In this document: positions 709-42,670 of the stretch, one piece after another
How positions within the stretch are numbered: the stretch's first letter is position 1
How the letters are laid out: the number at the start of each line of letters is the position of its first letter
Assembly (NCBI GenBank): GCA_965203805.1
Contig: OZ241917.1
Location: 3,200,001 to 3,264,000 of the forward strand
Direction of reading: 5' to 3'
Origin: Candidatus Latescibacterota bacterium
GTDB taxonomy: Bacteria; Latescibacterota; UBA2968; GCA-2709665
Length of the DNA stretch: 64,000 nt
Translations under genes and position numbers: made by a program
The notes under the pieces: model-generated
The model's database searches: none
Told to the model about the DNA's origin: nothing
The model's input: the letters and a program-made list of their open reading frames with translations, nothing else

Positions 709-2274
709 ATGAACGAAGACTCGGCATTGATCGCACATTGGAGACTGGACGGAGACTGCCGGGACCATGCAGGCGCCAACCACGGCGAGAATCACGGCGT
801 GACGTTTTCCCCTGACGGCGCCGGGTTCAACGGCCGCGGCGCCCACGTCCTGGTGCCCTCCGCCCGATCGCTGGAACTCGGCAAGGGTGACTTTTCCATA
901 TCGGTCCACGCGCATACGGACGAAATCCTCGACGATGTGCCGGGGGACATCCTGAGCAAATACGACCCGGACGCACGGACGGGCTTCAACTTCGGTCTCG
1001 CGAACAACGCGGGCGTCACCGCTGCCCAGGCGAACTATCGCCACCTTCATTTCGGGATCGACAGCGGTCACGTCGGCGAATGGATCGACTGCGGGCGCCC
1101 CGGAAACAACCTGCGCGTCTACTCCCTGTGCGTTTTCGACGGTGATCTGTACGCCGGAACGTTCGAAACCGGCGCGGACGAGTCGGGAGGCGTCTATCGG
1201 TACGACGGAGACTCGGGATGGATCGACTGCGGGCACCCGGACAGGTGCAATACCATGGCGTCGCTGTGCGTATTCAACGGAACCCTCTACGCGGGTTCCT
1301 CCCGCTACAAGGCCGGCGGGTCCGCCCTTCCGGAATCCGAGAACCTGAACCCGGGAGGAAATATGTTCAGGTACGAGGGCGGCTCCGACTGGACGCCCAT
1401 CGGCCACCTGGAAGGCGCGGATTCCTGTGCAGGCATGGCCGTTTACCGGGGCGAACTCTATGCCATCCCCCTCTACAGCCAGGGCGTATTCCGCTACGAC
1501 GGCGATGACGTCTGGAGCCACTGCGGCACCCCCGGGCGGCGGATGATGTCCCTGGGGGTGTTCAACGGCGACTTATACGGCGCAGGGAACGAAGGAGGAG
1601 GTGCCGGCGGCGTCTTCCGCTACGACGGCGGAACCGGTTGGGTCCACGCCGGCGGTCAGGAGGGCGTGACCCAGGTCTATTCCTTCGCCGCCCACAACGG
1701 CAGACTCCACGTGGGCACCTGGCCGGAGGGCAAGGTCTTCAGGGACGACGGCAACGATCCGTGGACCTGCGCCGGGCGACTTGGCGAGGAAATGGAAGTC
1801 ATGGCGATGGCCGTGTACAATGGAAAACTCTACGCCGGCACCCTGCCCCTGGGCCAGGTGTATCGTTACGACGGAGGCGACACGTGGACCCTGACGGGCC
1901 AGCTCGACACGACTCCGGACGTCAGATACCGGCGCGTCTGGTCCATGGCCGTCTACCGGGGAAGACTGTTCGGAGGCACGTTGCCCTCCGGACGCGTCTA
2001 CGCGCTGGAGGCCGGCGCAAACCTGAGCTACGATCACGAACTGGCGCCCGGATGGCGGCATCTCGCGGCCGTCCGGCAAGGCAGCCGCCTCCTCCTCTAC
2101 GTGGACGGAGAGCAGGTCTCCAACTCGACGACCTTCGACCCCAGGCAATTCGACCTCACGAACGAAATGCCTCTAAGGATCGGCGCCGGCGCGGTCGACA
2201 CCTTCAACGGGCGGCTCAGGGACCTTCGTCTCTATGGACGCGCGCTCACCGCGGCGGAGATTGCGAATCTGTAA
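709..2274 (+). CDS. LamG-like jellyroll protein with inserted beta-propeller repeats
   Basis: ATG at 709 after GAGGAG. N-terminal LIAHWRLDG...DFSISV and C-terminal WRHLAAVR...LYVDG...LRLYGRALTAAEI are LamG-like. Between them are about 7 repeats of (S/A)(L/M)xV(F/Y)xGxLYAG...G(V)(Y/F)RYDG...W. Confidence 0.8.
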   Translation: MNEDSALIAHWRLDGDCRDHAGANHGENHGVTFSPDGAGFNGRGAHVLVPSARSLELGKGDFSISVHAHTDEILDDVPGDILSKYDPDARTGFNFGLANNAGVTAAQANYRHLHFGIDSGHVGEWIDCGRPGNNLRVYSLCVFDGDLYAGTFETGADESGGVYRYDGDSGWIDCGHPDRCNTMASLCVFNGTLYAGSSRYKAGGSALPESENLNPGGNMFRYEGGSDWTPIGHLEGADSCAGMAVYRGELYAIPLYSQGVFRYDGDDVWSHCGTPGRRMMSLGVFNGDLYGAGNEGGGAGGVFRYDGGTGWVHAGGQEGVTQVYSFAAHNGRLHVGTWPEGKVFRDDGNDPWTCAGRLGEEMEVMAMAVYNGKLYAGTLPLGQVYRYDGGDTWTLTGQLDTTPDVRYRRVWSMAVYRGRLFGGTLPSGRVYALEAGANLSYDHELAPGWRHLAAVRQGSRLLLYVDGEQVSNSTTFDPRQFDLTNEMPLRIGAGAVDTFNGRLRDLRLYGRALTAAEIANL

Positions 2275-2370
2275 GTACCGCGGTTGGAAATTGCGGCCGG
2301 CATTCGTGCGGTCCGCCGAAGCGACAGGCGTGGAACCCGCGTACCAGCCGAAACCTCCGGGAGAACAGTC

Positions 2371-3696
2371 ATGTTAAGAGCAGGCGCATCCAGGGTCAAC
2401 ATCACCCCGTTTCTGGGCGGACCGATGGCCGGTTACGGGGCGCGCGACCGGGGCAGCGAGAGTATCCACGACGAACTGCATGCGAAGGCCCTGGTGCTGG
2501 ATGACGGAAGCACCAGAGTCGCGTTGATTACCACCGACCTCATCGGTATCGAACGGGAATTCGCCGAGCGCGTCCGCGGGCTCGTCGAGGAGCGGGCAGG
2601 CATTCCTCCGGACGGGGTCTGGATGTGCGGGTCCCACACCCATTTCGGGCCGGCCGTCAGCACGCGCCGGAAGGACGGGGACGATGCGGACGCATTTGAC
2701 AGGTCTTACGCGGAGGTGTTGGCCGCGAAACTGTCCACGGCCGTACAGCTCGCGCACAACCGGCTTCGCCCCGCCCGGCTCGGCGCCGGCGGCGCCCTCG
2801 CGGAAGGCATCAGCTACAACCGCCGGCTCATCCGGCACGACGGCAAGGTGGAAATGAGCCTCACCCTGCCGCCGCCTTACGAGGGTCTGAAGTTCGGTCC
2901 TGTCGACACGGAAGCGGGCCTGCTGAAAATAGAAGGCGACGACGACGGCGAGTCCATCGCATCCCTCGTCAACTTCGCCTGCCATCCCGTCTCCAGCACC
3001 GACCGTATGTATGAATTCACCGCCGACTATCCGGGTTACGCCATGGACCTGATCGAGTCCGTGGAAGGCGGCATCTGTCTCTTCGCCCTCGGGTGCGCGG
3101 GCAATATCGTTCCCATCCAGCGGCAGGGCCGTTCCAAACGCCAGGTCGGCCTGTCTCTCGGGGGTTGCGCGCTGAACGCGCTCCAGTGGATTCGGACAAC
3201 CGGCCAGGTCCGCATCCGTGCCGCCAGAAAGTCGATCGAACTGCCCCTGCGCAGATTTCCCACGCCCGCGCGAATGGAGCGGCAGATTGCCGAAGCGGAA
3301 GCCGCGCTCGCCGTCGCGCGTGAACGGAAAGCGCCGTCGCGCGAGATCACTGAACGCAGGGAGGCCCTGGGCCTTGCCAGAAGTCTGCCTCAATGGGCCG
3401 AACGATTCGACAGGCGGAAGACGCGAACCACGGAAATCCAGGTGTTCTGGCTTGGCGACGTTCCGTTGATCGGGCTGCCGGGCGAAGTCTTCGTTGAACT
3501 CGGACTCCGGATCAAGAAAGCCCTGGATGCCGATCCGGTCCTGGTTGTGAGTCTCAGCAACGACAGCGCCGGGTACATTCCGGTCCGGCGGGCGTACCGG
3601 GAAGGCGGCTACGAATCCCGCGTGTCGCCTTACGCCCCCGGCTGCGGCGAGCACCTCGTGAAGGAAGCGCTGGCTCTCGCCGAATCGATTCGATAG
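2371..3696 (+). CDS. Neutral/alkaline ceramidase-like metallo-amidohydrolase
   Basis: LRAGASRVNITP start, HDELHAKALVL, SHTHFGP, NFACHP, LPGEVFVELG and GGYE motifs. Confidence 0.8.
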   Translation: MLRAGASRVNITPFLGGPMAGYGARDRGSESIHDELHAKALVLDDGSTRVALITTDLIGIEREFAERVRGLVEERAGIPPDGVWMCGSHTHFGPAVSTRRKDGDDADAFDRSYAEVLAAKLSTAVQLAHNRLRPARLGAGGALAEGISYNRRLIRHDGKVEMSLTLPPPYEGLKFGPVDTEAGLLKIEGDDDGESIASLVNFACHPVSSTDRMYEFTADYPGYAMDLIESVEGGICLFALGCAGNIVPIQRQGRSKRQVGLSLGGCALNALQWIRTTGQVRIRAARKSIELPLRRFPTPARMERQIAEAEAALAVARERKAPSREITERREALGLARSLPQWAERFDRRKTRTTEIQVFWLGDVPLIGLPGEVFVELGLRIKKALDADPVLVVSLSNDSAGYIPVRRAYREGGYESRVSPYAPGCGEHLVKEALALAESIR

Positions 3697-29829: not shown

Positions 29830-30050
29830 GGCTGTCCTCCTGATTCCGGCTGGACATAGGCGACGAAGGTCTCCTCCAAGCCCAGGTCCGTTACATCCAC
29901 GATGCGCCTGCCCTGCGCCTGGATGCGCGCGGCCTGTTGTTCGCCGGTGATTACCGCGGTCTCATGCTCTGTGGGTGCGCTTTCCAGGATGTAACAGGCG
30001 GTCGAAGCCACGAATATCGTGACTACGCCGCTAAAGTTCACTTTCGCCAT
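29826..30050 (-). pseudogene. Chimeric remnant: redoxin-type N-terminus fused to the C-terminus of the ABC ATPase
   Basis: MAKV...TAVITGE resembles VAIITGE of the redoxins. QQAARIQAQGRRIVDVTDLGLEETFVAYVQPESGGQP matches the ATPase end EQAARIQAQGGHIEDVMDVGLEEAFVAHVHPESGGQR. Confidence 0.75.
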
Positions 30051-30153
30051 GAAACCGTTTCCTTTTGAATTCATCCTTCCTCAACGGGCCCGGGTGGATC
30101 TAACCTTCAGATTCAGCGTCATTCATATAATTGGACTCGACGGATTGCTTTTC

Positions 30154-32229
30154 CTACATCCTCGGGTTTTCGAAGATGGCCAGGTGGTTGTCCAGAAGGG
30201 CGTATATATGATCGCCCGCCGGGATAAACATATCGCGCCCACGCGGGGCTCCTCCCGTTCGTGGGTCGGATCGAAGAATGCCGGGGCCGAGGCGATAGGT
30301 AAACCGTGTCTTCAACCCGAGTGTCTCTCTACGCTTATACGCGCCGTAGACGGTCTTGCTGTATGTTTGGACCGATTCACCTCTGAGGGCGTAGGCGGAC
30401 TCTCCTTCGATCTTCATCAACGTTGGAAGACGCGTCCACGGGAGGTAGTCGACTTCCACCGGCTTCCCGGGATCGCTGATGTCCACGATCGCAATCTCGC
30501 GCGGAAGGGGTCGTTCGACATATGCCCGATCGTCCTCGACGGTAAGCGGCCCCAATCCGGACGGTGCGGCATGCGCGTACGCATGTTTACCGTGGAATTG
30601 CATCATCCGCTCGAACACCCGTGCAAACTTCGGACCCGCTTTCTCCTGTATCCTTGACAGGCGTTCAGGGACCTCTCCTGAAGCCAGTTGTCGATGGAAT
30701 TCCTGAACCATCGTCTCGTAACGGACAGAACGACCGAATCGACGCAGCGGCGTACGGCTCAAAATTGAGGGGCGACCGGAATCTGCAAGATCCAGAATCA
30801 TGAAATCGTGTCCAAGCGTGAGAAATGCGCGTGGACCCGCAAACTGTATTGCCCACTCGTCGCCCCAGGCATGTTTCACCGCCTCTTCGAGAGTCAATAT
30901 CTGAATTTGTCGCAGCAGGCCATCTTCTTGTATGTCAAAACTGTGCATTTCCACGAATTCATCCCGGATAAGCCCCGCGTACAGATGATTCTCCCATACT
31001 TCCCACCCTACCAGCCGGGGGACGCGCTTCAATAACGGGGTTGGGCCTTTCTCGATCGGATGCAACCGCATCTTCGCCTGCAACCGCGCGCGGTCCGGTT
31101 GGCTGAGGTCGAATATTACGACGCCCGCACTGCCGCGAAATCTGGCCCAGACGTACGCACGCGAGCCGGACAACGCCAACCGTTCGAGGCGCCACCCGCC
31201 CCCGCTGACCCGGCCGATTTGCACGGGCACCGAGACATCCGACACGTCCACGACGCTGAGTTCCCGATCGAGTAATACAACCGCCAGATCATCCTTCAAC
31301 GCCATGTCCATCACTCTTTCCTGGTAGCGCAGGCGTCCCAACGGCCGGTTGTGGGGATGCGGGTGAGGGTGTGGTGATCCAACGTGATCCATTCCGATGA
31401 GGACAACGGCGCAAATCAAAGCGATTCCTCCAAGCACCCACTGGAAGCGCCGTCGCAACTGCTCACTGCATACACGGCAGGACAGTGCCAGAATCCCGCC
31501 GGCCACAAGGACGGCCACCGCGCCCCTGGCAATCAGAAGAGAAGCGTCGAATGCCTTTCGAAGGATTCCGGCGTGGTCGTGCACGCCCACGGAGAACAGG
31601 AGCCTGAAATAGAATGCCACGATGGGCGGCCCCCAGTTCCACGCAATCATTATACATACGTACGCTACCCAGGCGGCGATCAGGCACGTGACCGCAGCCT
31701 TTAGGGGATGGTTGGCAAGTGTCGATACAAGCACGGACAGGGCATAAGGAATCAGGCTGACCAGGAACCATAGAAGTACGGTCCGTCCATACCCAACGTC
31801 AGCCAGAATCTCATCCGGCTGCCAGCTTGGCCACAGGATAAGAGACCGAGGCGGGAAGAAACCCAGTTTATCGATGAAATCTCCATCTATCGCCATATCG
31901 ATGAATACGCCGCCCCAATAAGAAGCCAAGACCACCAGAAGTCCGACAGCGCCCACGATAAATTTCGTCACCAGAATTTTCCACCAGACCAGGGGCCTGC
32001 ATAGCAGGAAGGGCAGCGTCATCCGGCTTCGCTCCCGAGCGATCGCGTCCATCCCCATCAGCACCGCGCCGAAGAGGCCGACCGCGTGACTGACTACATT
32101 CACATCGGCAGGAGCAAATTCCCATTGGGAGAAAACCAGGCCGACAATCATCGCCAGGCCGGCGCATGCGGCGACTTTGTAGGCGGATTCGCGGGCTTCC
32201 TTCCAGAACAGAGCACCGATCGGGTTCAT
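30154..32229 (-). CDS. ABC-2-type permease fused to an LVIVD-like repeat domain, copy 1
   Basis: Full-length paralogue of 27805-29829; start overlaps the ATPase stop (ATGA). Confidence 0.85.
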   Translation of the reverse strand: MNPIGALFWKEARESAYKVAACAGLAMIVGLVFSQWEFAPADVNVVSHAVGLFGAVLMGMDAIARERSRMTLPFLLCRPLVWWKILVTKFIVGAVGLLVVLASYWGGVFIDMAIDGDFIDKLGFFPPRSLILWPSWQPDEILADVGYGRTVLLWFLVSLIPYALSVLVSTLANHPLKAAVTCLIAAWVAYVCIMIAWNWGPPIVAFYFRLLFSVGVHDHAGILRKAFDASLLIARGAVAVLVAGGILALSCRVCSEQLRRRFQWVLGGIALICAVVLIGMDHVGSPHPHPHPHNRPLGRLRYQERVMDMALKDDLAVVLLDRELSVVDVSDVSVPVQIGRVSGGGWRLERLALSGSRAYVWARFRGSAGVVIFDLSQPDRARLQAKMRLHPIEKGPTPLLKRVPRLVGWEVWENHLYAGLIRDEFVEMHSFDIQEDGLLRQIQILTLEEAVKHAWGDEWAIQFAGPRAFLTLGHDFMILDLADSGRPSILSRTPLRRFGRSVRYETMVQEFHRQLASGEVPERLSRIQEKAGPKFARVFERMMQFHGKHAYAHAAPSGLGPLTVEDDRAYVERPLPREIAIVDISDPGKPVEVDYLPWTRLPTLMKIEGESAYALRGESVQTYSKTVYGAYKRRETLGLKTRFTYRLGPGILRSDPRTGGAPRGRDMFIPAGDHIYALLDNHLAIFENPRM

Positions 32230-33125
32230 CGCTGTCCTCCTGATTCCGGATGGACATGGGCGACGAAGGCCTCCTCGAGGCCGACGTCCATCACGTCCTC
32301 GATATGCCCGCCCTGCGCCTGGATGCGCGCGGCCTGTTCCTCGCCGTAGTCCACCACGGTCAGCAGCCGCCGCGGTCCCTCCCCCTGCACCTGGCGCAGT
32401 CCTTCGATGTCCGTCATTCGATCCTCGCCTTCCTGCAGCCGTACTGTGACGCGCTTGACCGACCCTTTCACGTCGTCCACCGTGCCGTCGGTCACCAGGC
32501 GTCCCTTTTCGATAATGGCCACGCGGTCGGCCACGCGCTCCACCTCGTGGACCAGGTGCGATGAAAGGAAAACCGTGCGGCCTTCCTCCTGGATGAGACC
32601 GATAATGCTCTCGAGAAAGTCGCGACGCACCACCACGTCCAGCCCCGAGGCCGGCTCGTCCAGGACCAGCAGACGCGGCTCGTGGCCAAGCGCAAGGGTG
32701 AGCGCCAGCTGGGCGTTCATCCCTCGCGACAGGTGCTTGACCTTCTGCTCCGGATCCAGGCCGAACCGCTCGATCAGCCCGTTTACACTGTCATGGTTCC
32801 AGGTCTCGTAGAACTGGCCGGTGAACCAGACGAGTTCCCGTACTTTCATCCATCCGTACATCACCCGGTTTTCGGCCACGTACCCCACCTGCCGCCGCAG
32901 CGCCAGCGTATCCTGCTCGGGATCCAGCCCCAGGACCTCCACCCTTCCGGCGGTGGGCTGCAGCAGGTTCATGAGAATCTGGATGGTCGTGGTCTTGCCC
33001 GCGCCATTGCGGCCGAGGAAACCGCAAACCGTCCCCGCGGGCACCTCCAGCTGCAGATCGTCCACGGCCGTGAGTTTGCCGAAGCGGTGGGTCAAGCCCT
33101 CGATTGCGATCGCTGTATCGCTCAT
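32226..33125 (-). CDS. ABC transporter ATP-binding protein (YtrB/ABC-2 type)
   Basis: GRNGAGKTT, LSRGM, LVLDEP, SSH. Confidence 0.95.
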   Translation of the reverse strand: MSDTAIAIEGLTHRFGKLTAVDDLQLEVPAGTVCGFLGRNGAGKTTTIQILMNLLQPTAGRVEVLGLDPEQDTLALRRQVGYVAENRVMYGWMKVRELVWFTGQFYETWNHDSVNGLIERFGLDPEQKVKHLSRGMNAQLALTLALGHEPRLLVLDEPASGLDVVVRRDFLESIIGLIQEEGRTVFLSSHLVHEVERVADRVAIIEKGRLVTDGTVDDVKGSVKRVTVRLQEGEDRMTDIEGLRQVQGEGPRRLLTVVDYGEEQAARIQAQGGHIEDVMDVGLEEAFVAHVHPESGGQR

Positions 33126-33150
33126 ATCGACTCCCTGTGTTCTGTCCCGG

Positions 33151-33540
33151 TCACTCATCGTTCCGGAAACGGTCGAGCCGTTCCCGGATCACCTGTTCCA
33201 TCTCGTCAGGAGACAGTTCCAGCTCGACGCCCTGCACCAGCGCCCTGTCGAGCAACTCCCTTACGATTTCCAGCTTTTCCTCTCGGGAAATGGTGACGTC
33301 CCGCTCGGCGACGTACGTGCCCATCCCCCGCTTCTTGTAGATGAACCCCTCGCGCTCCAGTTCAAGATAGGCGCGCGCAACGGTATTCGGGTTGATCAGG
33401 TACTGACCGGCGAGGTCCCTCACGGAGGGCAACTCTTCGTGCGGCTTGAGCACCCCCCGCGCCATCTGATACCTGATCTGTTCCATCATTTGCAGGTAGA
33501 TGGGCACCCCGTTGGCCGAATCTATGCGCAAGGGCAGCAT
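33151..33540 (-). CDS. GntR family regulator, YtrA subfamily
   Basis: PIYLQ...LPSVRDLA...INPNTVARAYLELE...RGMGTYV with a short C-terminus; precedes ABC genes. Confidence 0.95.
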   Translation of the reverse strand: MLPLRIDSANGVPIYLQMMEQIRYQMARGVLKPHEELPSVRDLAGQYLINPNTVARAYLELEREGFIYKKRGMGTYVAERDVTISREEKLEIVRELLDRALVQGVELELSPDEMEQVIRERLDRFRNDE

Positions 33541-33562
33541 GGCTGCGTTCCTGTGCCAAGAG

Positions 33563-33622
33563 TATTACTGTATGGGTGAACCGATACAGTGATATACTAA
33601 CAAAACTGACTCGAAAATGCAA
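33563..33622 (-). promoter_or_regulatory. Promoter and palindromic operator of the gntR-ABC operon
   Basis: Minus-strand TTGCAT-N17-TAGTAT (33622-33594). Imperfect palindrome TATTACTGTAT...ATACAGTGATA (33563-33594) lies over the expected start site, as is typical for YtrA autoregulation. Confidence 0.65.
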
Positions 33623-33663
33623 GCGGTTTTTTCGATCAGGGAAAAAAGCGGTGCGGCGAACGT

Positions 33664-33947
33664 CACAGAAGGGCGCCCCTGCAAGACCAGGGGAAGCGAT
33701 GGCAGGGTGAAGGCGTATGGAGGCGCGGTAAACAGCGGGCGGGAAGCGGGTCTGAAGGTGGGGCGGACATTCCTGTCTGCCCTCTTTTCGTCGGCCTTCC
33801 GGGACGCACTGAGAATAAAGACAGTCGCCGGCTTTTTGGTACCGCAATTTTCGAATGTGGCAGATGCGACGAGTTGTTGCATACCCGGACATGGACTTTG
33901 TAGTCTTCGTCTTTTGGATGTGAGCAGACAGGAATGTCTGCTCCACC
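33664..33947. repeat. REP-like cluster: inverted pair of GGTGGRGCRGACATTCCTGTCTGC units plus a ~110-bp block repeated at 34989-35096
   Basis: GGTGGGGCGGACATTCCTGTCTGCCC near 33757 and its inverse GAGCAGACAGGAATGTCTGCTCCACC near 33922; the block CCCCT(G/A)CAAGACCAGGGGAAGCGATGGCA is shared with the second copy. Confidence 0.7.
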
Positions 33948-34160
33948 CTGAAACCTGGGTTCTCAGCATGACGTGGTGGATGCGCGCGGGAATTGCCCAC
34001 ACCCAAGTCGCAGGAGATGCTTCGTCAAGTTCCTGGATTTTCGGGGGACCGGCACACATTTTGCAGCCATTAACACAAGGCGCGACTACGAATTTCGGTT
34101 TCGCTGCAGAATCTCGGAACGAAGTAATTGCGCTCGGGAAGCCTCACGAAAGACACCGTT

Positions 34161-34667
34161 ATGCGCCGCATACTGAAGTTGATTTTTTAGCCTTTATCAT
34201 TGTTGCAGTTCCCATTGACAGCCCGCGATTTTTGTTGTTATTTTAATCCATTGGCGCAAGACGGGGGAGAAGGACGTAGTCATATTGGGCGCCTGGTCTG
34301 TCACTGTCGCCTACTTCACAATACCAGCCCGTTGAAAAAGTCCATCCGGGCTACGTCCGGCCCTTGTGACCGAAATACGGCGTTGCGCTCCCTCCCCGAA
34401 TCCAGGGATTCGCGTCGGTCACGCGCCTTGTCTTCGGCCACAATGACTCGGCCTCGCCTGCAGAGCGACTTTTCCATCGGACTGTTAGGAGCAATTGACA
34501 TCATGGGTATGTTCGTTGGGACGATGACTGAATTTGTGGCCAGATGGTACAAAAACAGGGTTCTCGAAAATGCGCGCGAAGAGATCCGGGAACAGGTTCG
34601 TGAGGAAGTCCTTCAGGAACTTCGGGAGGGCAGGCAGGACAAGACAGATGCGGGTGAAGTAAAGTGA
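34161..34667 (+). pseudogene. Small membrane-protein gene disrupted by a MITE and upstream frameshifts
   Basis: Removing 34324-34487 gives the contiguous reading AIFVVILIHWRKTGEKDVVILGAWSVTVAYFTI-GAIDIMGMFVGTMTEFVARWYKNRVLENAREE; the 5' boundary is uncertain. Confidence 0.6.
34324..34485. mobile_element. 162-bp MITE with imperfect terminal inverted repeats and TA duplication
   Basis: Left CAGCCCGTTGAAAAAGTC; right end reverse complement CAGTCCGATGGAAAAGTC; TA at 34322-34323 and 34486-34487. Confidence 0.75.
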
Positions 34668-34756
34668 ACATCCCGTTCCAATAAACCTGCGCAACTGTAA
34701 CCTCCGGACTGTGTTGATATTGAATTTCACGTCGGCTTGTCGTTCCGTTAAATTAC

Positions 34757-34837
34757 AATGTGCCAAGCATATTGCCCCCCGGAGGATCGTATTCTCCGGC
34801 CGACGCTCCTGTCCGCGGCAGGGGCGTTTCTTTTTTT
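34757..34837 (+). ncRNA. Candidate structured small RNA, orphan copy
   Basis: Near-copy of 38445-38523 with three hairpins and a T tract; preceded by TTCACG-N17-TAAATT (34726-34754). Confidence 0.55.
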
Positions 34838-35190
34838 CAATGAGACGGTTTTCGTGCGATTGGCAACCCCCCACCGCATCAGCCGTCGCCGGTCCATCGA
34901 CCCTTCGACATTTCGACACCCTTCGACAAGCTCAGGGAGCGAGGTCGATGCAGGCAGCTCAGGTATCGCCTCCGACAGCCGGGCACCCACAAGGGACGCC
35001 CCTACAAGACCAGGGGAAGCGATGGCAAGGTGGAGGCGCATGGAGACGTACGGGAAAAGGGCGGGAAGGAGGTTTGAAGGTGGGGCAGACATTCCTTGGA
35101 ATTAACCAGAAAACTCTTGCACCCCTTAAAGTCGAAATATTATATTTCAATTGTCCACATACAGGCAACGTGCGATAAGGAAATATCCCC

Positions 35191-35502
35191 ATGGCAAACG
35201 ACAAGATGACCCATGACGAAATTATCCAGCGCATGCTGAAATTGGACATCGACGTTATGATTCTCCGTGTAGTCCTCCTACAGGTAATTCGTTCAATTGG
35301 GAAAGATCGTCCCGACCTAATTCAGCAGCTCCTCGTTACAACCGATCCGATAAAAGCCTCAGAAAAGACATTCCCAATAAAGGTCGCTCTTAGAAACGTC
35401 ATTCCGAAGGTCGTGCCGCTGCCAGTCTTTAATGAAATCTTCGATGACGCCTTTAGCGAAATCCACAACAACATAATCGCAATCGCCAACCTGGACCGCT
35501 AA
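35191..35502 (+). CDS. Hypothetical 103-aa protein
   Basis: Clean ORF in AT-richer DNA with AAGGA upstream and a TTGCAC...TATATT promoter-like sequence; no motif recognised. Confidence 0.6.
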   Translation: MANDKMTHDEIIQRMLKLDIDVMILRVVLLQVIRSIGKDRPDLIQQLLVTTDPIKASEKTFPIKVALRNVIPKVVPLPVFNEIFDDAFSEIHNNIIAIANLDR

Positions 35503-35643
35503 AGCGCTCATAATCAAACTCACCCACTTGCCCCGGTCTAAAGGAAAATCGCGCGCAAATGTGACTCTTGGTTAGTACTCCGTATTCAAGTGGCACGGGC
35601 GTCGTAGTATTGGATTTTCTTTGGGTTGATGATGCCGCAAACC

Positions 35644-36849
35644 CTAGAACAAATCCCGTTGGATCGACAGAATTCTGTCCCGAGATTTCGATTCCTCAGT
35701 ACCCCGGATTGCCTCCGCCGATGGACCATCCGATGAATCGAATACATCCTCATCTTGTTCGTCGTACAATCCACAATATTTCTCTTGCGGATTTGGATCG
35801 TAGAGCAATTCGATTTGGTGTTTCGACAACATCCGGAGCTCCCTGACGTCATTGATCAATATTCCCGCCTCCTGCTTCGTCATTACGGGAAATCCGTAGT
35901 TTTCGTTCTTGTATTTCAGAGAACGGCCCGAAGCCGTTCTGTTGGTTATGAATTCCAGGTGCTTTGCCAGCCTTTCGTCAATATACTGATTGGACGATGC
36001 CACAATGTCGTTTGTTCTCTCAGCTACCGCATCTGCGAAATTAGGGTCGATTTCATAGCCTACGCTGTTTCTGCAAGAAGCCATCGCTGCCGCCATTGAT
36101 GTGCCGGTCCCCAGGAACGGATCCAAGACCAGATCACCCTTCGCGGAGAACATATTAATTAGCCTGTACGCAAGCTCAAAAGGAAAGGCCGCACTTCTTT
36201 TGCGGAGATTCTCGTTTTTCAAGTCCTGCTTGGCTCCCTTCATATCCATCCATACATCGGAGAACCAGATATTCCGTTCTTCCCAAAAAAAAGCGCTCCT
36301 CTTTCGGCGTAGTTTTTCTGCCTGACTTTCGAATTTCCTCTTCCCACCTTTTCTGAAGACAAGGATGAATTCATGCTCTAATGTTACGTAAGCCCCTGGC
36401 GGCAACATTCCACTTCCCATAAACTTGTTTGGCGCATTTGTCTGCTTTCTCCAAAGAATCTCCGGCAACGCCTGAAATCCCGTCTTCAAGCAGTGGCTCG
36501 ATATTCTTGAATGGTTGGGATAAAGTTTGAAATCTCCGTCAATCGTTCTTGTGGCATCTCCCACGTTAATGCAGGCAATTCCTCCTGGCCTTAAAATTCT
36601 ATAGACCTCCTCCCATACGCCGTCGAGAAGCTGATTCATCAACTCAAATGCAAGATTGCCGTTTTTGTCCCACAATGCCTCTCCTATTGCGGGATTTTGT
36701 TTTGTAAACAACCCATCCCACATCTCAATCATGGGATACGGCGGGGAAGTAATCATCAGATCTACAGAATCGTCCCTAAGTTCATTCATACCATTTGAAT
36801 CTGCGTAGAATATCGTGTGCGTTGTTTTTATCTCACCCATCTTTCCCAA
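35644..36849 (-). CDS. Site-specific DNA methyltransferase, beta class, probably N4-cytosine
   Basis: TSPPY (motif IV) precedes VLDPFLGTGT (motif I); adjacent to the endonuclease. Confidence 0.92.
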   Translation of the reverse strand: MGKMGEIKTTHTIFYADSNGMNELRDDSVDLMITSPPYPMIEMWDGLFTKQNPAIGEALWDKNGNLAFELMNQLLDGVWEEVYRILRPGGIACINVGDATRTIDGDFKLYPNHSRISSHCLKTGFQALPEILWRKQTNAPNKFMGSGMLPPGAYVTLEHEFILVFRKGGKRKFESQAEKLRRKRSAFFWEERNIWFSDVWMDMKGAKQDLKNENLRKRSAAFPFELAYRLINMFSAKGDLVLDPFLGTGTSMAAAMASCRNSVGYEIDPNFADAVAERTNDIVASSNQYIDERLAKHLEFITNRTASGRSLKYKNENYGFPVMTKQEAGILINDVRELRMLSKHQIELLYDPNPQEKYCGLYDEQDEDVFDSSDGPSAEAIRGTEESKSRDRILSIQRDLF

Positions 36850-36944
36850 TCATCCTCCAGTCTCGTCCCGAACGAAGTTTCCCATATCCAGCTTATTTTC
36901 AAATCGATAATTAATCTACCGTACCGTACTTTATGTCGATCAGG

Positions 36945-37544
36945 TCAAAAAAGCTTCGGCGGATCTTCATCTGGGATTTCAATTGTGATCCCGTCGCCCT
37001 TCTTTTCATAATACACAATGGTTACGTAAATTGCATCGGCCAAACTTGGCTTTGATTTAAAAGTACTTGGCTTAATTGAGTACGGGCGATCGCCGACAAA
37101 TCCATCTATTCCTTGGCTTTCTTCATACGTTTCGGCCAGACGATAATCGCACCCCTTCAACTCAGCCAGTCTCTTCAGAATCGCTTCTTGAAACCTAAGG
37201 CCCACAAAAGTCTTCACGAGCACCAGATCCTCGACCCAACTCTTAACAAGCTCTCGATCGATAACCGGGAATGCCGTCTGTAATTTTTCGAGCATCGACG
37301 TAATTCGATTGGTCGCCTGATCAATTGCGTCGGGGTTTTTCTCAAGATACCACTGAACCCACTCTTCGTATGTTTTGCCCGGAAACTGCTGAATCAGTTC
37401 GCTCATCTGCCCCACTACCTTTGGTCTGGTCCCCTGCGCGTTCTGATTAGCCAGATTCATTATTTGAGTTGTGTATTTGGGAAACTCCGAAATTGGCGCT
37501 TCCAAGTACTCCTGAATCTCTTCATTCTTAAGCTTTAATTTCAC
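36945..37544 (-). CDS. Type II restriction endonuclease, MjaI-like family
   Basis: PKYTTQIMNLANQNAQGTRPKVVGQMSELIQ N-terminus and ESQGIDG...SIKP nuclease core, recognised from memory as MjaI family. Confidence 0.8.
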   Translation of the reverse strand: MKLKLKNEEIQEYLEAPISEFPKYTTQIMNLANQNAQGTRPKVVGQMSELIQQFPGKTYEEWVQWYLEKNPDAIDQATNRITSMLEKLQTAFPVIDRELVKSWVEDLVLVKTFVGLRFQEAILKRLAELKGCDYRLAETYEESQGIDGFVGDRPYSIKPSTFKSKPSLADAIYVTIVYYEKKGDGITIEIPDEDPPKLF

Positions 37545-37733
37545 TGCAATACCTCGGAAAGATATTGGCGTATAGTGACTTACTCAGACGTTTCCCTTGG
37601 AAGGTTGAACACTTGTGGCCAGCACCGATGTTATTGCCTGTTGTGTGTCCAAACCAAGCGTCAACTGTCGTTACTTTGCAGCATTTTCAATGAATTGTAG
37701 GGAATTCACACCAAATAAATCGTCGTCACGTTT

Positions 37734-38399
37734 TTATGGTTTAGTTTTCCATCTATCCGGACAAGATAGTTCATAGCCATCCGGTTTGGTTATCTTTTCT
37801 GGTAACATACTAATACTTAGTTTCTTTCTGCCAATCACAAATGATCCAGAAGCCATTGCGCTCAATGCTCCCGAAATTCTCGAAGGGGGAAAGGCGATTA
37901 CAATACGCTTTCGATACAATTCGATCACCTTTTTGACGGGTGGAACGAGGTCGCCGTCGCCCGAAATTACGATTGCCGCATCGTACCTGTCTTGTTGAGC
38001 ATCGACTAACATTTCGACAGCAATTGCTACGTCGGTCCTTTTCTCTTCCGAATCATCCCATTCGAACTTGCAGGACGGACAGGACACCTTCTTACGTACA
38101 TAATGTCCCCAGTTCTTACGTACATAATGTCCCCAGTAGAATTTGACGCCGCCCATTGCATTTAGGGCTTCGAGAAAGGTGTTTTGTCTCTTCCATTTGC
38201 CACGGTCTCTATTGTTCTGAGAAACACGCGACGTGAAGTACTTCACGCCTACCAATGATTGGTGCTCACGGAGTAGATTATGAGACAGAAGCCTTAAATC
38301 CAGCCAGAGAAAGCGATTCTTCCACTTTGACTTTAAACCATAATAGAGATTGAATCCGTCTATGTAGACGATTACACGTTCCTTGGAAGTCTGTTTCAT
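37734..38399 (-). CDS. NYN domain (LabA/DUF88, PIN-fold) nuclease with CxxC insert
   Basis: YIDGFNLYYG, EEKRTDVAIA and ISGDGDLVP acidic active-site motifs; CPSC; contains a 24-bp tandem duplication. Confidence 0.9.
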   Translation of the reverse strand: MKQTSKERVIVYIDGFNLYYGLKSKWKNRFLWLDLRLLSHNLLREHQSLVGVKYFTSRVSQNNRDRGKWKRQNTFLEALNAMGGVKFYWGHYVRKNWGHYVRKKVSCPSCKFEWDDSEEKRTDVAIAVEMLVDAQQDRYDAAIVISGDGDLVPPVKKVIELYRKRIVIAFPPSRISGALSAMASGSFVIGRKKLSISMLPEKITKPDGYELSCPDRWKTKP

Positions 38400-38412
38400 C
38401 CGGAATTTTCGC

Positions 38413-38441
38413 TTGACACACATATTATGAGTTGTTAAATT
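38413..38441 (+). promoter_or_regulatory. sigma70 promoter for the antisense small RNA
   Basis: TTGACA-N17-TAAATT with an extended -10 TG. Confidence 0.65.
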
Positions 38442-38444
38442 ACG

Positions 38445-38523
38445 AATGTGCTAAGCATATTGCCCCCCGGAGGATAGCATTCTCCGGCCGACGCTCCTGT
38501 CCGCGACAGGAGCGTTTCTTTTG
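38445..38523 (+). ncRNA. Candidate structured small RNA antisense to the NYN 5' leader
   Basis: Hairpins AATGTGC-TAA-GCATATT, CCGGAGGAT-AGC-ATTCTCCGG and GACGCTCCTGTC-CGC-GACAGGAGCGTT followed by TCTTTT; non-canonical pairs are G-U only on the plus strand. Confidence 0.65.
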
Positions 38524-38535
38524 TATACAACATCA

Positions 38536-38564
38536 AGCATAACATATAGTTATCGGCCAGTCAA
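38536..38564 (-). promoter_or_regulatory. sigma70 promoter for the NYN gene
   Basis: Minus-strand TTGACT-N17-TATGCT with an extended -10 TG, giving a leader of about 130 nt. Confidence 0.65.
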
Positions 38565-38726
38565 GGGATTAATCGAAGCGCAGGTGGCGCGCCAGTGAGG
38601 GTGGTTCGCGACCATTCGGATAATTACCCGGCGATGCATGTTTCGGCATGCGCGTCCATCACTGGCTGATCGAAGGACACTCGACCGATTCCCGTAGTGT
38701 AGGCAGCCTCATAGGAGCAGGATGTC

Positions 38727-39404
38727 TTGTTGACCTCGGAAGAATGGATGGTTCTTGGCCTTTCTCTGCGCGTGGGTCTGGTCTGCGTGCTGTTGAGCCT
38801 GCCCGCGGCGGTGATCCTGGGCTGGGTGCTCGCCAGGCGCGAATTCCGGGGCAAAGTGCTGCTCGACGGGCTTTGTCACCTGCCCCTGGTGCTGCCCCCC
38901 GTGGTGACCGGCTACGTGCTGCTGCTGTTGTTCAGCCGTCGAGGTGTTCTGGGGGGCTTTCTGGAACCGACGCTGGGACTCCAGGTGGCGTTTACCTGGA
39001 AAGGGGCGGCGCTGGCTTCGGCCGTGGTCGCATTTCCCCTGGCGCTTCGCGCCATCCGGCTGGCCATTGAGGCCGTAGACCCCAGGTTGGAACACGCGGC
39101 CCGCACATTGGGCGCCGGTCGGCTCAGAGTCTTCCTGACCGTAACGCTGCGGCTGGCCGCGCCCGGGCTGCTGGCGGGCGCAATGCTGGCATTCGCGCGA
39201 AGCCTGGGAGAGTTCGGCGCCACCATCACCTTTGTGTCGAATATCGCCGGGGAGACGCGGACGCTGCCCCTGGCGATATTCACGTACATCAACCGGCCCG
39301 GCGGGGACGCGGCCGTCGCCCGTCTGGCGATTCTGTCCGTCATCCTGTCCTTTGCGGCGCTGGTGGCCGGCGAGGTGGCGGCCCGGCGAATGAGGAGAAA
39401 CTGA
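38727..39404 (+). CDS. modB: Molybdate ABC transporter permease
   Basis: LPLVLPPVVTGY, LEHAARTLGA (EAA loop), FARSLGEFGATI. Confidence 0.93.
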   Translation: MLTSEEWMVLGLSLRVGLVCVLLSLPAAVILGWVLARREFRGKVLLDGLCHLPLVLPPVVTGYVLLLLFSRRGVLGGFLEPTLGLQVAFTWKGAALASAVVAFPLALRAIRLAIEAVDPRLEHAARTLGAGRLRVFLTVTLRLAAPGLLAGAMLAFARSLGEFGATITFVSNIAGETRTLPLAIFTYINRPGGDAAVARLAILSVILSFAALVAGEVAARRMRRN

Positions 39405-39405
39405 C

Positions 39406-40485
39406 GTGCTCTCCATCCGCGTGAAACGGTCGCTGCCGGGATTTACCCTCGAGGCGGCGGTCGAGTGCCCCTATCCGGTGACCGCGATCTTCGGGCCTTC
39501 CGGCGCCGGAAAGACCACGCTGCTGGACCTCGTGGCGGGCCTGCTCGCGCCGGACGACGGGGAGGTCCGGCTGAACGACCGCGTGCTCTTCTCGTCCGAA
39601 ACGGGCGTGAATCTGCCGCCTGAACGGCGCCGCGTGGGGTACGTGTTTCAGGAAGACCTGCTGTTCCCCCATCTGACCGTCATGGAAAATCTGCGGTACG
39701 GTTACGACCTCCTGCCTCCGGATTCGCGCCGGTTCGAGGTGGGACCCGTGGTGGATCTCATGGGACTGTCCGGGCTGCTCGACCGGCGTCCGGCGCGTCT
39801 GTCGGGCGGCGAGCGGCAGCGGGTGGCGCTGGGGCGGGCGATTCTGGCCTCGCCGGAACTGCTCCTGATGGACGAACCCCTGGCTTCCCTGGATCAGGAA
39901 CTCAAAGACCGAATTATCCCCTACTTGCGGCACATCAGGTCGGACCTGGGCATCCCGATTCTCTACGTGAGCCATTCGGTCGCCGAGATCCTGGAGTTGA
40001 CCGGACAGGTAATCGTCCTGAAAGCCGGACGCGTGATCGCGCACGGGGACTTTTTTCACGTTGTCCATCATCCCGAGGTGCTGCCCCTGGCCGAGGCGCA
40101 CGGGTTCGAGAACGTGCTGCCGGTGGAGGTGGTGGCGCAGGACGGGGCCCGAAGAGGCTGCCGCGTGCGTTTCGGAAATCAGGAGCTTCGGGTGCCCCCA
40201 TGCGACAGACCCGTTGGAAGCCGGATCTTCATCAGCATTCGGGCAAACGACATCATCCTGAGCAGGAAACAGCCGGAGGGGTTGAGCATTCGCAACGCGA
40301 TGCGGGGCCGGATCCTCGACATGCAGGACGTGGACGGCAAACAACTGGTCTACGTGGACGTGGGGAAACGGCTGGCCGTGGAGGTGACCCTGGAAGCGCT
40401 GGAAGAGTTGGGCCTGGAGGTCGGCGACCCGGTGATGTGCCTGGTGAAAGCCCACTCGATTCGAATCGGCCCGAACGCGGACTGA
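39406..40485 (+). CDS. modC: Molybdate ABC transporter ATP-binding protein
   Basis: GPSGAGKTT, LSGGERQRVA, LMDEPL and a C-terminal TOBE-like region (SIRN). Confidence 0.93.
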   Translation: MLSIRVKRSLPGFTLEAAVECPYPVTAIFGPSGAGKTTLLDLVAGLLAPDDGEVRLNDRVLFSSETGVNLPPERRRVGYVFQEDLLFPHLTVMENLRYGYDLLPPDSRRFEVGPVVDLMGLSGLLDRRPARLSGGERQRVALGRAILASPELLLMDEPLASLDQELKDRIIPYLRHIRSDLGIPILYVSHSVAEILELTGQVIVLKAGRVIAHGDFFHVVHHPEVLPLAEAHGFENVLPVEVVAQDGARRGCRVRFGNQELRVPPCDRPVGSRIFISIRANDIILSRKQPEGLSIRNAMRGRILDMQDVDGKQLVYVDVGKRLAVEVTLEALEELGLEVGDPVMCLVKAHSIRIGPNAD

Positions 40486-40519
40486 AGGCGTCGGGTGACG
40501 TGGTCCGATCCGATGCCCG

Positions 40520-41479
40520 TCATCCTTCCTCGCCTTCGTAGAGCAGCCTGAGAAGGGCAAGGAAGAGCCGGTCGCGCCGGTCGCGCGCCCGGTCGATGGA
40601 TTCGGGCGTGTACTCGTGGAAACCGCGGCCGGTCTTGACGCCGTAGTGCCCCGCTTCAACCAGTTTCCCGATGTTGCGGGGAAGTTCGGTGTCCGAACGG
40701 ATTTCGGAAACAAGAATCCTGTAAACGAGCGCCGAGACGTCGAGTCCTCCGAAGTCCCGCACGGTCAGGGGTCCGATGGCGGCCAGGCGGAATCCGACGC
40801 TGGCCCGGACCGCCCGGTCGATATCCTCGGGCTCGGCGACGCCCCTGTCGAGCAGGTCCCAGACTTCGCGCTGCATGGCGACCTGGATGCGGTTGACCAG
40901 GAAGCCCGGGAGTTCCTTCTTGAGGGGCACCGGCACCTTGCCGATACGTTCCAGGACGTTTACGGCGGTCCGTACCGTCGACCCGGTCGTGCGCTCTCCG
41001 GGAACGACTTCCACGAGCGGTACCAGATGGGGCGGATTGAACCAGTGGGTGACCACGGCCCGACCGGGATGCGAAAGGTCCCGTGCGATGTCGGTCATGG
41101 GAAAGGAGGACGTATTGCTGGCCAGAATGGTCTCACGCGAAACGACGGCTTCGATACGGGCGAAGCATTCCCGCTTGACGTCCAGGTCCTCGCGAATGGC
41201 TTCCGTAACGAAACCGGCGGCTTCCACGGCCTCGCGTTCGCTGTCGAAAACGGCGATGCGTCCGAGGGTTTCCCCGACCGTTTCCGGCGTGTCCATCCCC
41301 GCCTGAATGCGTTGCCGCAGGTTGGTTTCTATCCGGCGGTACAAGGATTCACGGGCCGCGGGGGACTCGTCGTAGCATCGCACCGGGTGTCCCGCCGCCG
41401 CGAATGCCTGCGCGATCCCGTGGCCCATCGTGCCCAGGCCGATAACGGCTATGGTCTGGAATTCCAATTCGCTTTGCAA
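40520..41479 (-). CDS. 3-hydroxyacyl-CoA dehydrogenase family protein
   Basis: GLGTMGHGIA, SNTSS, HWFNPPHLVPLVE, GFLVNR; start uncertain. Confidence 0.92.
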   Translation of the reverse strand: MQSELEFQTIAVIGLGTMGHGIAQAFAAAGHPVRCYDESPAARESLYRRIETNLRQRIQAGMDTPETVGETLGRIAVFDSEREAVEAAGFVTEAIREDLDVKRECFARIEAVVSRETILASNTSSFPMTDIARDLSHPGRAVVTHWFNPPHLVPLVEVVPGERTTGSTVRTAVNVLERIGKVPVPLKKELPGFLVNRIQVAMQREVWDLLDRGVAEPEDIDRAVRASVGFRLAAIGPLTVRDFGGLDVSALVYRILVSEIRSDTELPRNIGKLVEAGHYGVKTGRGFHEYTPESIDRARDRRDRLFLALLRLLYEGEEG

Positions 41480-41519
41480 GTGTCCCGTCCCCAAAATACC
41501 TCACCGTTCGGTCGCCGAT

Positions 41520-42670
41520 TCATCGCGTCTCGCTGCGTTGCTTGCACTGCCGGTGCTGAGCCTGTCGAAGCAAGCTTGCCGAAGTGCCTTGTCGAAGCGC
41601 CCTCGCTTACCGATCGTGGCAGGTCGCCATTCGGCGGACAAAACCACTTTGGAGCTAACCTACTGGGGGACAAGGGCTTTATCTCCCCCGCCAACTCTTA
41701 TTTTCTCTTCGTCCTTTTCAAAAAGCGGTGAGACGTAAGACGTGAGACGGGAGAGATTGCCTGCCCCGTGAGATTTCAGCTCAGACCGAAGGCATTGTGG
41801 AGGAGCGATTCGGGCAAGGATTTCTTCTACCGTCTACCGTTTCACCTCTCCCCGAATTTGAAGAAGCGTGCCGCTCGGCGCGGGGCCGGTTTTTCCGTGA
41901 ACCACCTCAGTGGCGTAAGTGGAAATTGGTTGCCCTGTCACCGTACCAGCCCTGCCGGAACTATGTTGCTAGACGGATTTGCACGGAAAAAACCCCCACT
42001 CCGCCACCGTTCGCTTGACTAAACTGCGCGAGGTTTGATGCATTTGCGATCTTGACGATTATGCGCTTGAGAACCCCCGACACCCCCACCAACCTACCCC
42101 CTATCCCCCTTCCCGAAGGAAGGGGGAACGGAGATCCTATCAGGGAGTCCTGGTTGTCTCCCCCTCTCCCCCCGGGAGAGGGGGTTGGGGGGAGAGGTCT
42201 GCGGCGTTGGGGGTGGTTCGCTCTCGGCTGATTGCAGTTGCTTTCCTTTGTGTCTTCGTGTCTTTGTGTGAGCAGATTTTCGTTTTTGATCTTGGCTATC
42301 GGTCGAGAGCTAACGTCTGCCCTCATCATCCAGGCACCCATCGGTTTACAAAGGTATATCCTGACCGGAGAACGACCAGAGCAGAGCGCGCTGATCCGTC
42401 CAGCAACGCGGTTCGATGTGCCTCCGAGGGTGTCGGGGCAAAGGATCCTGTGCATCCTGTGAGCGTGTTCGCGCTATGCATTTCGCAGGCCCCACGCCCA
42501 GTGGCGACTTTTGGTTCCTTTTGGTCGCTTTAAAAGGAACACGCCGTAGGCAGGGAATTTGGGGAGATGTGGATGTTGAATTTGATTCTTGTTTTTGATT
42601 TTCGCTCTTGCTTCAAGCTGACCGCTGATGGCTGACTGCTGAAAGCTGCTTTTCTCCTTCCGAATTCAGG
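41520..42670. repeat. Non-coding repeat mosaic 1
   Basis: About 41636-42145 aligns with 49992-50495, and about 42243-42558 aligns with 60644-60994. Also contains a CTGAGCCTGTCGAAG palindromic unit, CCCCCTTCC..GGAAGGGGG hairpins and GCTGANN heptamers. Confidence 0.85.

Follow-up and report, generated by a model that had tools for sequence, protein, structure and literature searches.

Nucleases accompanied by a dedicated small RNA are already known as a kind. In the type I systems SymE/SymR and RalR/RalA, an antisense RNA encoded in cis or nearly in cis acts against the 5' end of the mRNA of a nuclease-like toxin. The small RNAs DUF3800-I, drum and skipping-rope are each tied to one nearby protein, in either orientation, and may have a task different from that of known RNAs, and eleven mutually unrelated RNA motifs have been described as partners of DUF3800 (Weinberg et al. 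2017, PMC5737381). HEC-09 was described as a Hma-embedded candidate defence gene of the single-gene type, whose NYN fold resembles that of MARF1 and shares three aspartates with it (Payne et al. 2024, bioRxiv 10.1101/2024.01.29.577857). Here we report on a stretch of 64,000 nucleotides (nt) from a Candidatus Latescibacterota bacterium (contig OZ241917.1, positions 3,200,001 to 3,264,000; hereafter the window), in which a NYN-domain gene of the HEC-09 type lies beside the gene of a structured small RNA. The new element in this locus is the association of a NYN enzyme with a previously uncatalogued RNA family. The explanation that we favour, with confidence about evenly balanced, is that the small RNA and the NYN gene belong together as a module of two parts, in which the RNA would be the dedicated partner of the nuclease and would most likely restrain it as an RNA antitoxin.

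A dedicated structured RNA gene with its own promoter and terminator is co-inherited with the core clade of HEC-09 NYN genes through many phyla. Relatives of the NYN protein number more than 1000, with lengths of ~206-211 amino acids and ~50% identity, and 28 of these proteins were aligned. A contig search gave at least 602 matched stretches, at least 579 of them confirmed, and the best 80 loci were retained. These NYN loci come from more than 10 phyla (Chloroflexota, Planctomycetota, Bacteroidota, Ignavibacteriota, several proteobacterial classes, Acidobacteriota, Desulfobacterota, Nitrospirota, Deinococcota and others), and one of them is plasmid-borne. An earlier reading of the window, made from its letters alone (the original prediction), had proposed a conserved structure upstream of NYN homologues as its test, and the 260 nt upstream of the NYN genes indeed contained the same element in almost all loci. 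With a covariance model of this co-varying RNA (R1), 92 matches were obtained at E <=0.01, and 79 of the 80 NYN loci carried it within 1.5 kb; related genomes are not independent in these counts, and distances were taken from the starts of tblastn matches, not from mapped start codons. The exception, L075, gave no R1 match even with the filters off, and unrelated DNA scored at most 8 bits under the same setting. In 121 sampled genomes of the phylum, the HEC-09 profile detected 37 places in 27 genomes and R1 detected 49 places in 26 genomes. In these genomes, an R1 RNA adjoined each of the 14 HEC-09 genes with scores of 250 bits or more and also two fragmentary loci, and none of the 20 lower-scoring genes (at most 196 bits) had an R1 match nearby.

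In the conserved element, a promoter is followed by a short tail, which reads ACCCCNCC or, in loci from Bacteroidota, Ignavibacteriota and Chlorobi, ACANCNC, and then by a hairpin P1 with a variable lower stem and the top GAU-AGY-AUC, a CC linker and a terminator, P2, which has GACG at its start and CGUUUCUUUU at its end (GACG...CGUUUCU). The three-hairpin form found in the window is this core with an extra 5' hairpin, P0. Covariation was evaluated on 64 aligned instances, 61 of which had been picked from NYN loci by a regular expression, the others being L027 (from a third paralogue group) and copies from the genus, two of them from the genome of the window. The expression demanded at least 4 of 5 complementary bases by the loop, a requirement that favours pairing, though not variation, at five pairs. 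In these instances, 97.0% of the cells form standard pairs, compared to 38-48% when the partner is slid by 1-3 columns. Compensatory changes occur at 12 of the 17 pairs, and both sides are changed in 181 cells compared to a shuffle mean of 50, with none of 500 shuffles reaching the observed values. A second set of 38 independent matches was drawn from loci outside the training alignment; its alignment, which was fitted to the model and is thereby biased towards the modelled structure, gave 96.1% paired cells (37-49% with the partner slid by 1-3 columns), compensatory changes at 14 of 17 pairs and 101 cells changed on both sides, again unequalled in 500 shuffles. Covariation, which the original prediction had suggested as a check, was thus found in both sets (96-97% of cells paired, 37-49% in the slid controls).

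Wobble pairs of the G-U type outnumber A-C pairs by 18 to 6 in P1 and by 61 to 1 in the P2 terminator, an excess that marks the transcribed RNA strand. In the hairpin top, G21, A22, G25, A27 and U28 never vary, and 90% or more of the sequences agree at U23 and C29 and at the single-stranded C11 and C14, while the lower stem varies freely. Constancy of this kind implies that a protein recognises the top, and goes beyond what complementarity alone would require. A sigma-70-type promoter with the same direction as the RNA was present at most 75 nt upstream of the hairpin in 24 of 50 loci, compared to 37 of 1000 random windows. A DNA hairpin or the end of a mobile element had also been considered and was rejected, on the grounds that the promoter, the U-run and the predominance of G-U over A-C pairs speak for an RNA.

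A search of Rfam had been suggested in the original prediction. The Rfam 15 covariance models gave no match at E <=1 in positions 30000-42000 of the window, scans of short stretches likewise gave nothing relevant, and 17 other loci produced chance-level matches only. BjrC68 (RF02353) was discarded as a candidate, with 22.5 bits compared to a gathering score of 39 and an alignment that runs through the terminator only. The original prediction knew of no description of the pairing, and a full-text literature search found no published description of NYN, LabA or HEC-09 paired with a partner RNA.

The window contains two copies of the RNA, of which copy 2 lies next to the NYN gene (Table 1). The two facing sigma70-like promoters, the three-hairpin RNA ended by an intrinsic terminator and the second copy at 34757 with the same fold, all noted in the original prediction, were recovered at the stated coordinates by promoter scanning, folding and comparison of the copies. 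On its plus strand, copy 2 forms three hairpins (-37.5 kcal/mol, z -6.1; none of 200 shuffles was as good), and the minus strand folds less well (-32.2 kcal/mol, z -3.4). In a whole-genome search with R1, this copy scored 63.2 bits (E 1.8e-16). Copy 1 adopts the same fold at -36.0 kcal/mol on the plus strand and scores 61.7 bits with R1, and its minus strand is no better than shuffles (z -0.97). The two copies are separated by five differences, which lie in loops or convert A-U to G-U pairs. No consensus plus-strand promoter was found for copy 1 by the consensus scan.

Table 1. Positions of the small RNA copies, the NYN gene and neighbouring features in the window
Feature	Coordinates	Strand	Basis or remark
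Small RNA copy 2, ~75 nt, NYN-adjacent	38445-38524	+	Fold, covariance model
Promoter of RNA copy 2, TTGACA-17-TAAATT, TG extension	38413-38441	+	Consensus scan, 10/12 matches
RNA copy 2, P0 hairpin	38445-38461	+	Add-on confined to this genus
RNA copy 2, C-rich linker	38462-38466	+	
RNA copy 2, P1 hairpin	38467-38487	+	Cap GAU-AGC-AUU
RNA copy 2, terminator P2	38490-38516	+	12 pairs, then U-run TCTTTTG
Facing promoter, TTGACT-17-TATGCT, TG	38536-38564	-	Consensus scan, 9/12 matches
Small RNA copy 1, orphan, 3.7 kb from copy 2	34757-34834	+	94% identity over 78 nt
RNA copy 1, terminator	34802-34828		
NYN-domain nuclease gene, 221 amino acids	37734-38399	-	Open reading frame (ORF); homologue-supported start 38399
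Longest NYN ORF	37734-38423	-	In-frame ATG at 38423 would add 8 residues
24-nt exact tandem duplication in NYN gene	38089-38136	-	Two copies, 100% identical
MjaI-type restriction endonuclease	36945-37544	-	Pfam RE_MjaI, E 4.4e-62
N4/N6 DNA methylase	35644-36849	-	Pfam N6_N4_Mtase, E 3.7e-41
orf103	35191-35502	+	ORF in island
Low-GC island	35100-38550		Guanine-plus-cytosine content (GC) 0.41-0.50 inside vs 0.60-0.70 in flanks
G-rich element, ~100 nt, two copies	33671-33774; 34994-35096		89% identity
G-rich element, partial inverted copy	33924-33955		

The orientation of the RNA relative to the NYN gene was read from the table of R1 matches in the 80 NYN loci. The RNA lies upstream and antisense in 73 loci, upstream on the same strand in 3 (with the terminator some tens of bases ahead of the start codon) and only downstream and convergent in another 3, and the median distance is 69 nt from the start of the tblastn match, an approximate figure. 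Two to four RNA copies are present in 11 of the 80 loci, and in L103 three RNA units follow each other in a row behind one promoter. A tandem array of four complete promoter-RNA-terminator units with a period of ~105 nt was observed in a Dehalococcoidia locus, convergent and downstream of NYN (L097:2157-2535, minus strand). In another locus, from a metagenome-assembled genome of Bacteroidota (L120), the RNA hairpin (1601-1619, minus strand) is antisense and upstream of a DUF3800 gene (1652-2431, plus strand; E 1.5e-18), which takes the place of NYN.

An antisense RNA so close to the NYN start in 73 of 80 loci, at a median of 69 nt, would also be expected if it acted purely in cis, in the style of a type I system, through base pairing with the NYN leader and transcriptional interference, without any recognition of the RNA by the protein. 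The window itself speaks for this explanation in two ways. The gap between the NYN start and the -35 box of the RNA promoter is too small for a separate NYN promoter, so that NYN has to be transcribed across the RNA gene. In addition, the window contains a good facing promoter, which, if active, would give NYN a predicted leader of ~130 nt antisense to the whole RNA, and whose transcript would in that case probably also cover the restriction-modification genes behind NYN. Five promoter-like sites were counted in this region by the consensus scan, compared to a shuffle mean of 1.7. The promoter of the RNA is kept in the alignment of the genus. The facing promoter is common to the genomes G007, G008, G011 and G013 (loci L006, L007, L012 and L013), where the island of the window is present, whole or as remnants, and is not conserved in the island-free loci L005 and L010. 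Across the family, facing promoters located beyond the terminator show no enrichment over controls (5 of 50 loci vs 95 of 1000 control windows), and the one in the window is thus a local feature, shared with the relatives that have its island.

Purely cis-acting antisense control is for these and other reasons unlikely. The hairpin top and single-stranded bases are fixed across phyla, which perfect complementarity in cis does not need, same-strand and convergent layouts occur alongside the antisense one, and orphan RNA copies are kept far from NYN. The original prediction had proposed an RNA-controlled module built on a LabA/DUF88-type NYN protein, with either antisense repression or direct binding of the protein. 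The proposal of such a module is supported by the conserved RNA of the homologous loci. Of the two modes, direct recognition fits the whole family better than obligate antisense repression, as the orientation varies. The facing promoter and the leader are restricted to close relatives that share the island.

The RNA is nearly always present with a core-clade NYN gene; the converse is looser, and the RNA outlives the gene. One common hairpin variant was searched in contigs, and 80 loci of at least 119 stretches were considered. A NYN match was found within 1.6 kb in 56 of these 80 loci and was missing in 24, and in 12 of the 56 it was partial, with fewer than 120 residues; this scoring took the best segment alone and undercounts frameshifted genes. 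At least one of the 24 loci without a NYN match, L136, keeps an N-terminal NYN remnant. Among the NYN-linked loci of this set, the RNA is antisense and upstream in 43 and upstream on the same strand in 13 of 56, the latter mostly in Anaerolineae-type genomes.

The genes found next to the RNA include convergent NOV_C-domain (Hma-type) genes, type I methylases, OLD-type ATPases and an integrase, and the RNA often abuts the 3' end of the Hma-type gene carrying the NOV_C domain. The module occurs on plasmids and in defence islands with restriction-modification or Hma-type systems. The abutting NOV_C genes and the 24 loci with another gene as neighbour are what one would expect of a hairpin and terminator that merely serve as insulator or cassette boundary in defence islands and have no functional tie to NYN. 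Such hitch-hiking is highly improbable, given that linkage to the RNA holds for 79 of 80 loci and for 14 of 14 core-clade genes across very different neighbourhoods, that the RNA has its own conserved promoter, and that the hairpin top is fixed in sequence in a P1 that is unnecessary for termination.

The genome from which the window was taken (5.87 Mb) contains three good R1 matches, one weak match (E 0.1) and a single NYN gene, which is directly adjoined by one of the three good copies. A BLAST search of the 14 other genomes of the genus detected the RNA in 13, at 1-3 copies per genome, and gave no match in 7 genomes from the family's other genera. With the covariance model, 27 copies were counted in 14 of 15 genomes of the genus. 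The NYN genes of the genus comprise 8 near-full genes, of which one is truncated and another contains an internal TAG, and 2 C-terminal fragments. All 10 are located ~60-130 nt from an RNA copy, and 17 of the 27 RNA copies are orphans. Diverged paralogues of the RNA at two other chromosomal sites, one of them beside an ilvD-like gene, also adjoin NYN with the same geometry, and the NYN genes at these sites are 46-57% identical to that of the window (tblastn). A third paralogue group of the genus lacks P0. In the genome G012, both RNA copies are 280 bp apart, with no genes between them and no island.

Several observations made in the genus concern individual copies of the RNA. The third copy of the window's genome is an orphan outside the window (G000:C1:4541742-4541801, minus strand; loci L003/L111) and constitutes the best R1 match (76.4 bits); it has neither the P0 hairpin nor a NYN gene nearby. 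The homologous site carries an intact NYN gene in G010 and only a C-terminal NYN fragment in G002 and G006. In L012 and L013, the two genomes keeping only island remnants, a stretch like the 5' half of a tRNA (acceptor and D-arm) lies ~60 nt upstream of the RNA and replaces the -35 region; its identification as a tRNA fragment was dropped, as ARAGORN calls no tRNA there. As the two RNA copies of the window flank the island, duplication of an attachment site was considered, and was rejected in view of the lack of an integrase or tRNA, of the G012 copies lying 280 bp apart without an island, and of the RNA standing beside other NYN paralogues. A leader or riboswitch of modBC was likewise considered, the RNA being upstream of modB in the genus, and was rejected as well, since the paralogues adjoin ilvD-like and other genes and the constant neighbour across phyla is NYN.

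Thirteen of the 20 lower-scoring NYN genes of the phylum were fetched with their surroundings (L253-L265, from the genomes G027, G035, G102, G025, G099, G029, G039, G125, G120, G011, G005, G090 and G038). A terminator-like hairpin with a U-run is present 21-43 nt upstream of these divergent genes on the same strand, in 11 of 13 by rule and in 12 of 13 by eye, often with a promoter, a tail of the ACCACCCC type and a further hairpin ahead of it. These genes have at least two different types of leader, which are conserved between species. The search for plasmid-borne homologues yielded 313 records, 207 of them from Klebsiella. On the Thermus oshimai plasmid pTHEOS01, an R1 RNA (60.3 bits) is antisense and upstream of NYN. 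No R1 match was found with the NYN homologues (28-33% identity) of very small enterobacterial plasmids, which number in the hundreds and include a 3.5-kb plasmid of E. coli (L250) and a 4.2-kb plasmid of Klebsiella (L252). On the latter, a strong hairpin with a U-run was observed 21 nt upstream of the NYN homologue.

Ribonucleases may set their own level through their leaders, as is the case for rne and rnc. By analogy, a NYN RNase of the housekeeping type might set its own level via a cognate hairpin acting as autoregulatory leader or decoy, and would then be neither toxic nor defensive. The same-strand hairpin-terminator leaders of the divergent clades and of some core-clade loci would agree with this, as would the lack of a defence phenotype of HEC-09 in the experiments described (bioRxiv 10.1101/2024.01.29.577857). 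Nevertheless we give autoregulation a low probability. The distribution of the gene is patchy and island-borne, with low GC, restriction-modification or Hma neighbours and plasmids, it occurs in just 27 of the 121 phylum genomes, NYN is often decayed with the RNA retained, and the commonest layout leaves the RNA outside the NYN mRNA.

The obligate linkage and the fixed, docking-like hairpin could also indicate that the RNA is a positive subunit (sensor, guide or activator) of a ribonucleoprotein nuclease instead of an inhibitor. The 5' parts of the RNA do vary, with P0 in this genus and a tail that differs between the Bacteroidota-type and the other loci, and Weinberg et al. 2017 suggest for DUF3800-I, drum and skipping-rope a task unlike that of known RNAs (PMC5737381). 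On the other hand, the variable part is very short (a tail of ~5-10 nt), orphan RNAs without NYN are common, which would be odd for a cofactor, and no target complementarity was found, although no systematic search was made. A positive role is accordingly quite improbable in our view. There is a similarly slender chance that the hairpin top docks NYN while the variable 5' part (tail or P0) and clade-specific hairpins set the recognition target. Were the RNA a positive subunit, the HEC-09-like NYN proteins would be a broad family of RNA-gated or RNA-programmed nucleases.

The NYN protein of the window matches the Pfam family NYN (PF01936) with E 3.1e-13 (50.9 bits, cut-off 24.2) and the PADLOC HEC-09 model PDLC04163 with E 9.6e-77 over residues 7-218, nearly its full length. 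The residues D14, D123, D148 and D150 are invariant in the 28 aligned homologues, and the start is likewise conserved. The AlphaFold model of the protein (pLDDT 88.3) gave as top Foldseek matches the LabA-like 2qip (E 3.6e-11) and the NYN domains of MARF1 (5yaa and 6fdl). The modelled protein thus has a NYN/PIN-like fold with conserved acidic active-site residues, and from this fold a metal-dependent RNase activity may be expected. The 24-nt tandem duplication within the gene adds 8 residues (YVRKNWGH) immediately before a CxxC motif and is missing in the 27 other aligned homologues. It is situated in the sole low-confidence stretch of the model, where residues 92-100 have a pLDDT <50.

The low-GC island of the window lies between a GntR/ABC gene pair and modBC, according to a Pfam search of the window. 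Its minus strand encodes a DNA methylase, a MjaI-type restriction endonuclease and the NYN-domain protein. The former two constitute a type II restriction-modification pair directly downstream of NYN, probably in one operon. The methylase, the MjaI-type endonuclease and orf103 also adjoin NYN in G007 and G008; searches of orf103 with the Pfam and PADLOC profiles matched no family. A G-rich element is repeated in the non-coding DNA on either side of RNA copy 1, and one of its copies is located at the left edge of the island.

In the two-part module that we favour, the fixed hairpin top of the RNA would be the docking site for the NYN protein, and the RNA would act in trans, as type III antitoxins do. 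Action in trans would explain why the upstream-antisense, the same-strand terminated leader and the convergent downstream layouts all exist, and a trans-acting partner of the type III style is favoured because the orientation varies and because a hairpin-terminator leader precedes the genes of divergent clades on the same strand. The RNase would then be freed when the RNA is lost or turned over, for instance during phage infection. In the window, a second layer is likely, in which the RNA would oppose NYN expression by antisense pairing and polymerase collision, because NYN appears to be transcribed from the facing promoter through the RNA gene. The antidote function is suggested by the one-sided decay, in which NYN is lost and the RNA kept, NYN without RNA being seen in 1 of 80 loci, and by the survival of the pairing when the RNA gene is inverted or relocated. 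It is further suggested by the same-strand versions, which match the type III layout, by the extra RNA copies of some loci, and by the setting in defence islands and on plasmids. An antitoxin or defence role is on this view the candidate function of the module.

Several points weigh against this explanation. Cloned HEC-09 gave no defence against the phages tested and was not listed as toxic; the construct, with ~150 bp of upstream DNA and an inducible promoter, may or may not include the RNA (bioRxiv 10.1101/2024.01.29.577857, as far as the constructs are described there). The toxicity of NYN, the binding or cleavage of RNA and the expression of either gene are predictions from sequence. Known type III antitoxins are tandem repeats on the strand of the toxin, and the RNA described here is usually a single antisense unit. 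It also stands beside DUF3800 (L120), KilA-N and OLD-type ATPases, so that its specificity for NYN could be doubted. Linked genes are co-inherited in any case, and counts over related genomes are not independent. Finally, the NYN copy of the window may be impaired or recently mutated because of its 8-residue duplication.

If the favoured explanation is true, a candidate defence gene listed so far as a protein on its own is in fact a protein-RNA pair, which could account for the absent phenotype of HEC-09 when tested alone in a foreign host. A PIN-like (NYN) nuclease would join the short list of toxins under dedicated RNAs, and a widespread, strongly co-varying RNA family would be added to the catalogue. 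As the divergent clades carry hairpin-terminator RNAs of their own, partnership with an RNA may be general in this group of NYN nucleases, which would parallel the situation reported for DUF3800 by Weinberg et al. The pair measures ~0.8 kb and is present in cultured strains, among them Thermus oshimai JL-2 and Caldimonas manganoxidans ATCC BAA-369 (L147), and the hypothesis is therefore directly testable.

Compared to the described systems, the locus combines features of several. The promoters of the window predict the same arrangement as in SymE/SymR and RalR/RalA, which differ in that their RNAs need no conserved sequence recognised by the protein and are not known in other orientations. The antisense overlap typical of type I is predicted in the window by the facing promoters, a facing promoter not being general in the family. 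A further difference from type I is that the toxin there is a small hydrophobic peptide, whereas the protein of the window is a soluble NYN enzyme of 221 amino acids. Like the DUF3800-I, drum and skipping-rope RNAs as described in PMC5737381, the RNA is small, conserved and ended by an intrinsic terminator, but its partner is NYN and no Rfam 15 model matches it. The AbiF-type system of C. difficile, in the account given in PMC12373285, likewise places an RNase-type abortive-infection toxin under a neighbouring non-coding RNA; its toxin is HEPN instead of NYN, and its RNA is unrelated.

The type III systems (ToxIN, CptIN and TenpIN, as they are presented in PMC8860590 and PMC5772629) resemble the module in the combination of an endoribonuclease with an adjacent, dedicated and structured small RNA. 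They also resemble it in the terminator between RNA and toxin, seen here in the same-strand loci, in the multiple RNA copies of some loci and in the location in defence islands or on plasmids. The leaders of the divergent NYN genes, with promoter, hairpin and terminator on the same strand, have the toxIN-type layout. In contrast to type III, the putative toxin is a NYN (PIN-like) protein and not ToxN, CptN or TenpN, only the NYN and HEC-09 profiles giving a match, and the RNA of the window is a single unit on the opposite strand with its own promoter and not a processed repeat array. HEC-09 itself corresponds to the gene studied here in its protein family, its MARF1-like fold and its setting in Hma or restriction-modification islands. 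In the main text of Payne et al. 2024 it is treated as a lone protein, and the terms 'ncRNA' and 'non-coding' are absent from that text; to this protein, the present analysis adds the RNA partner.

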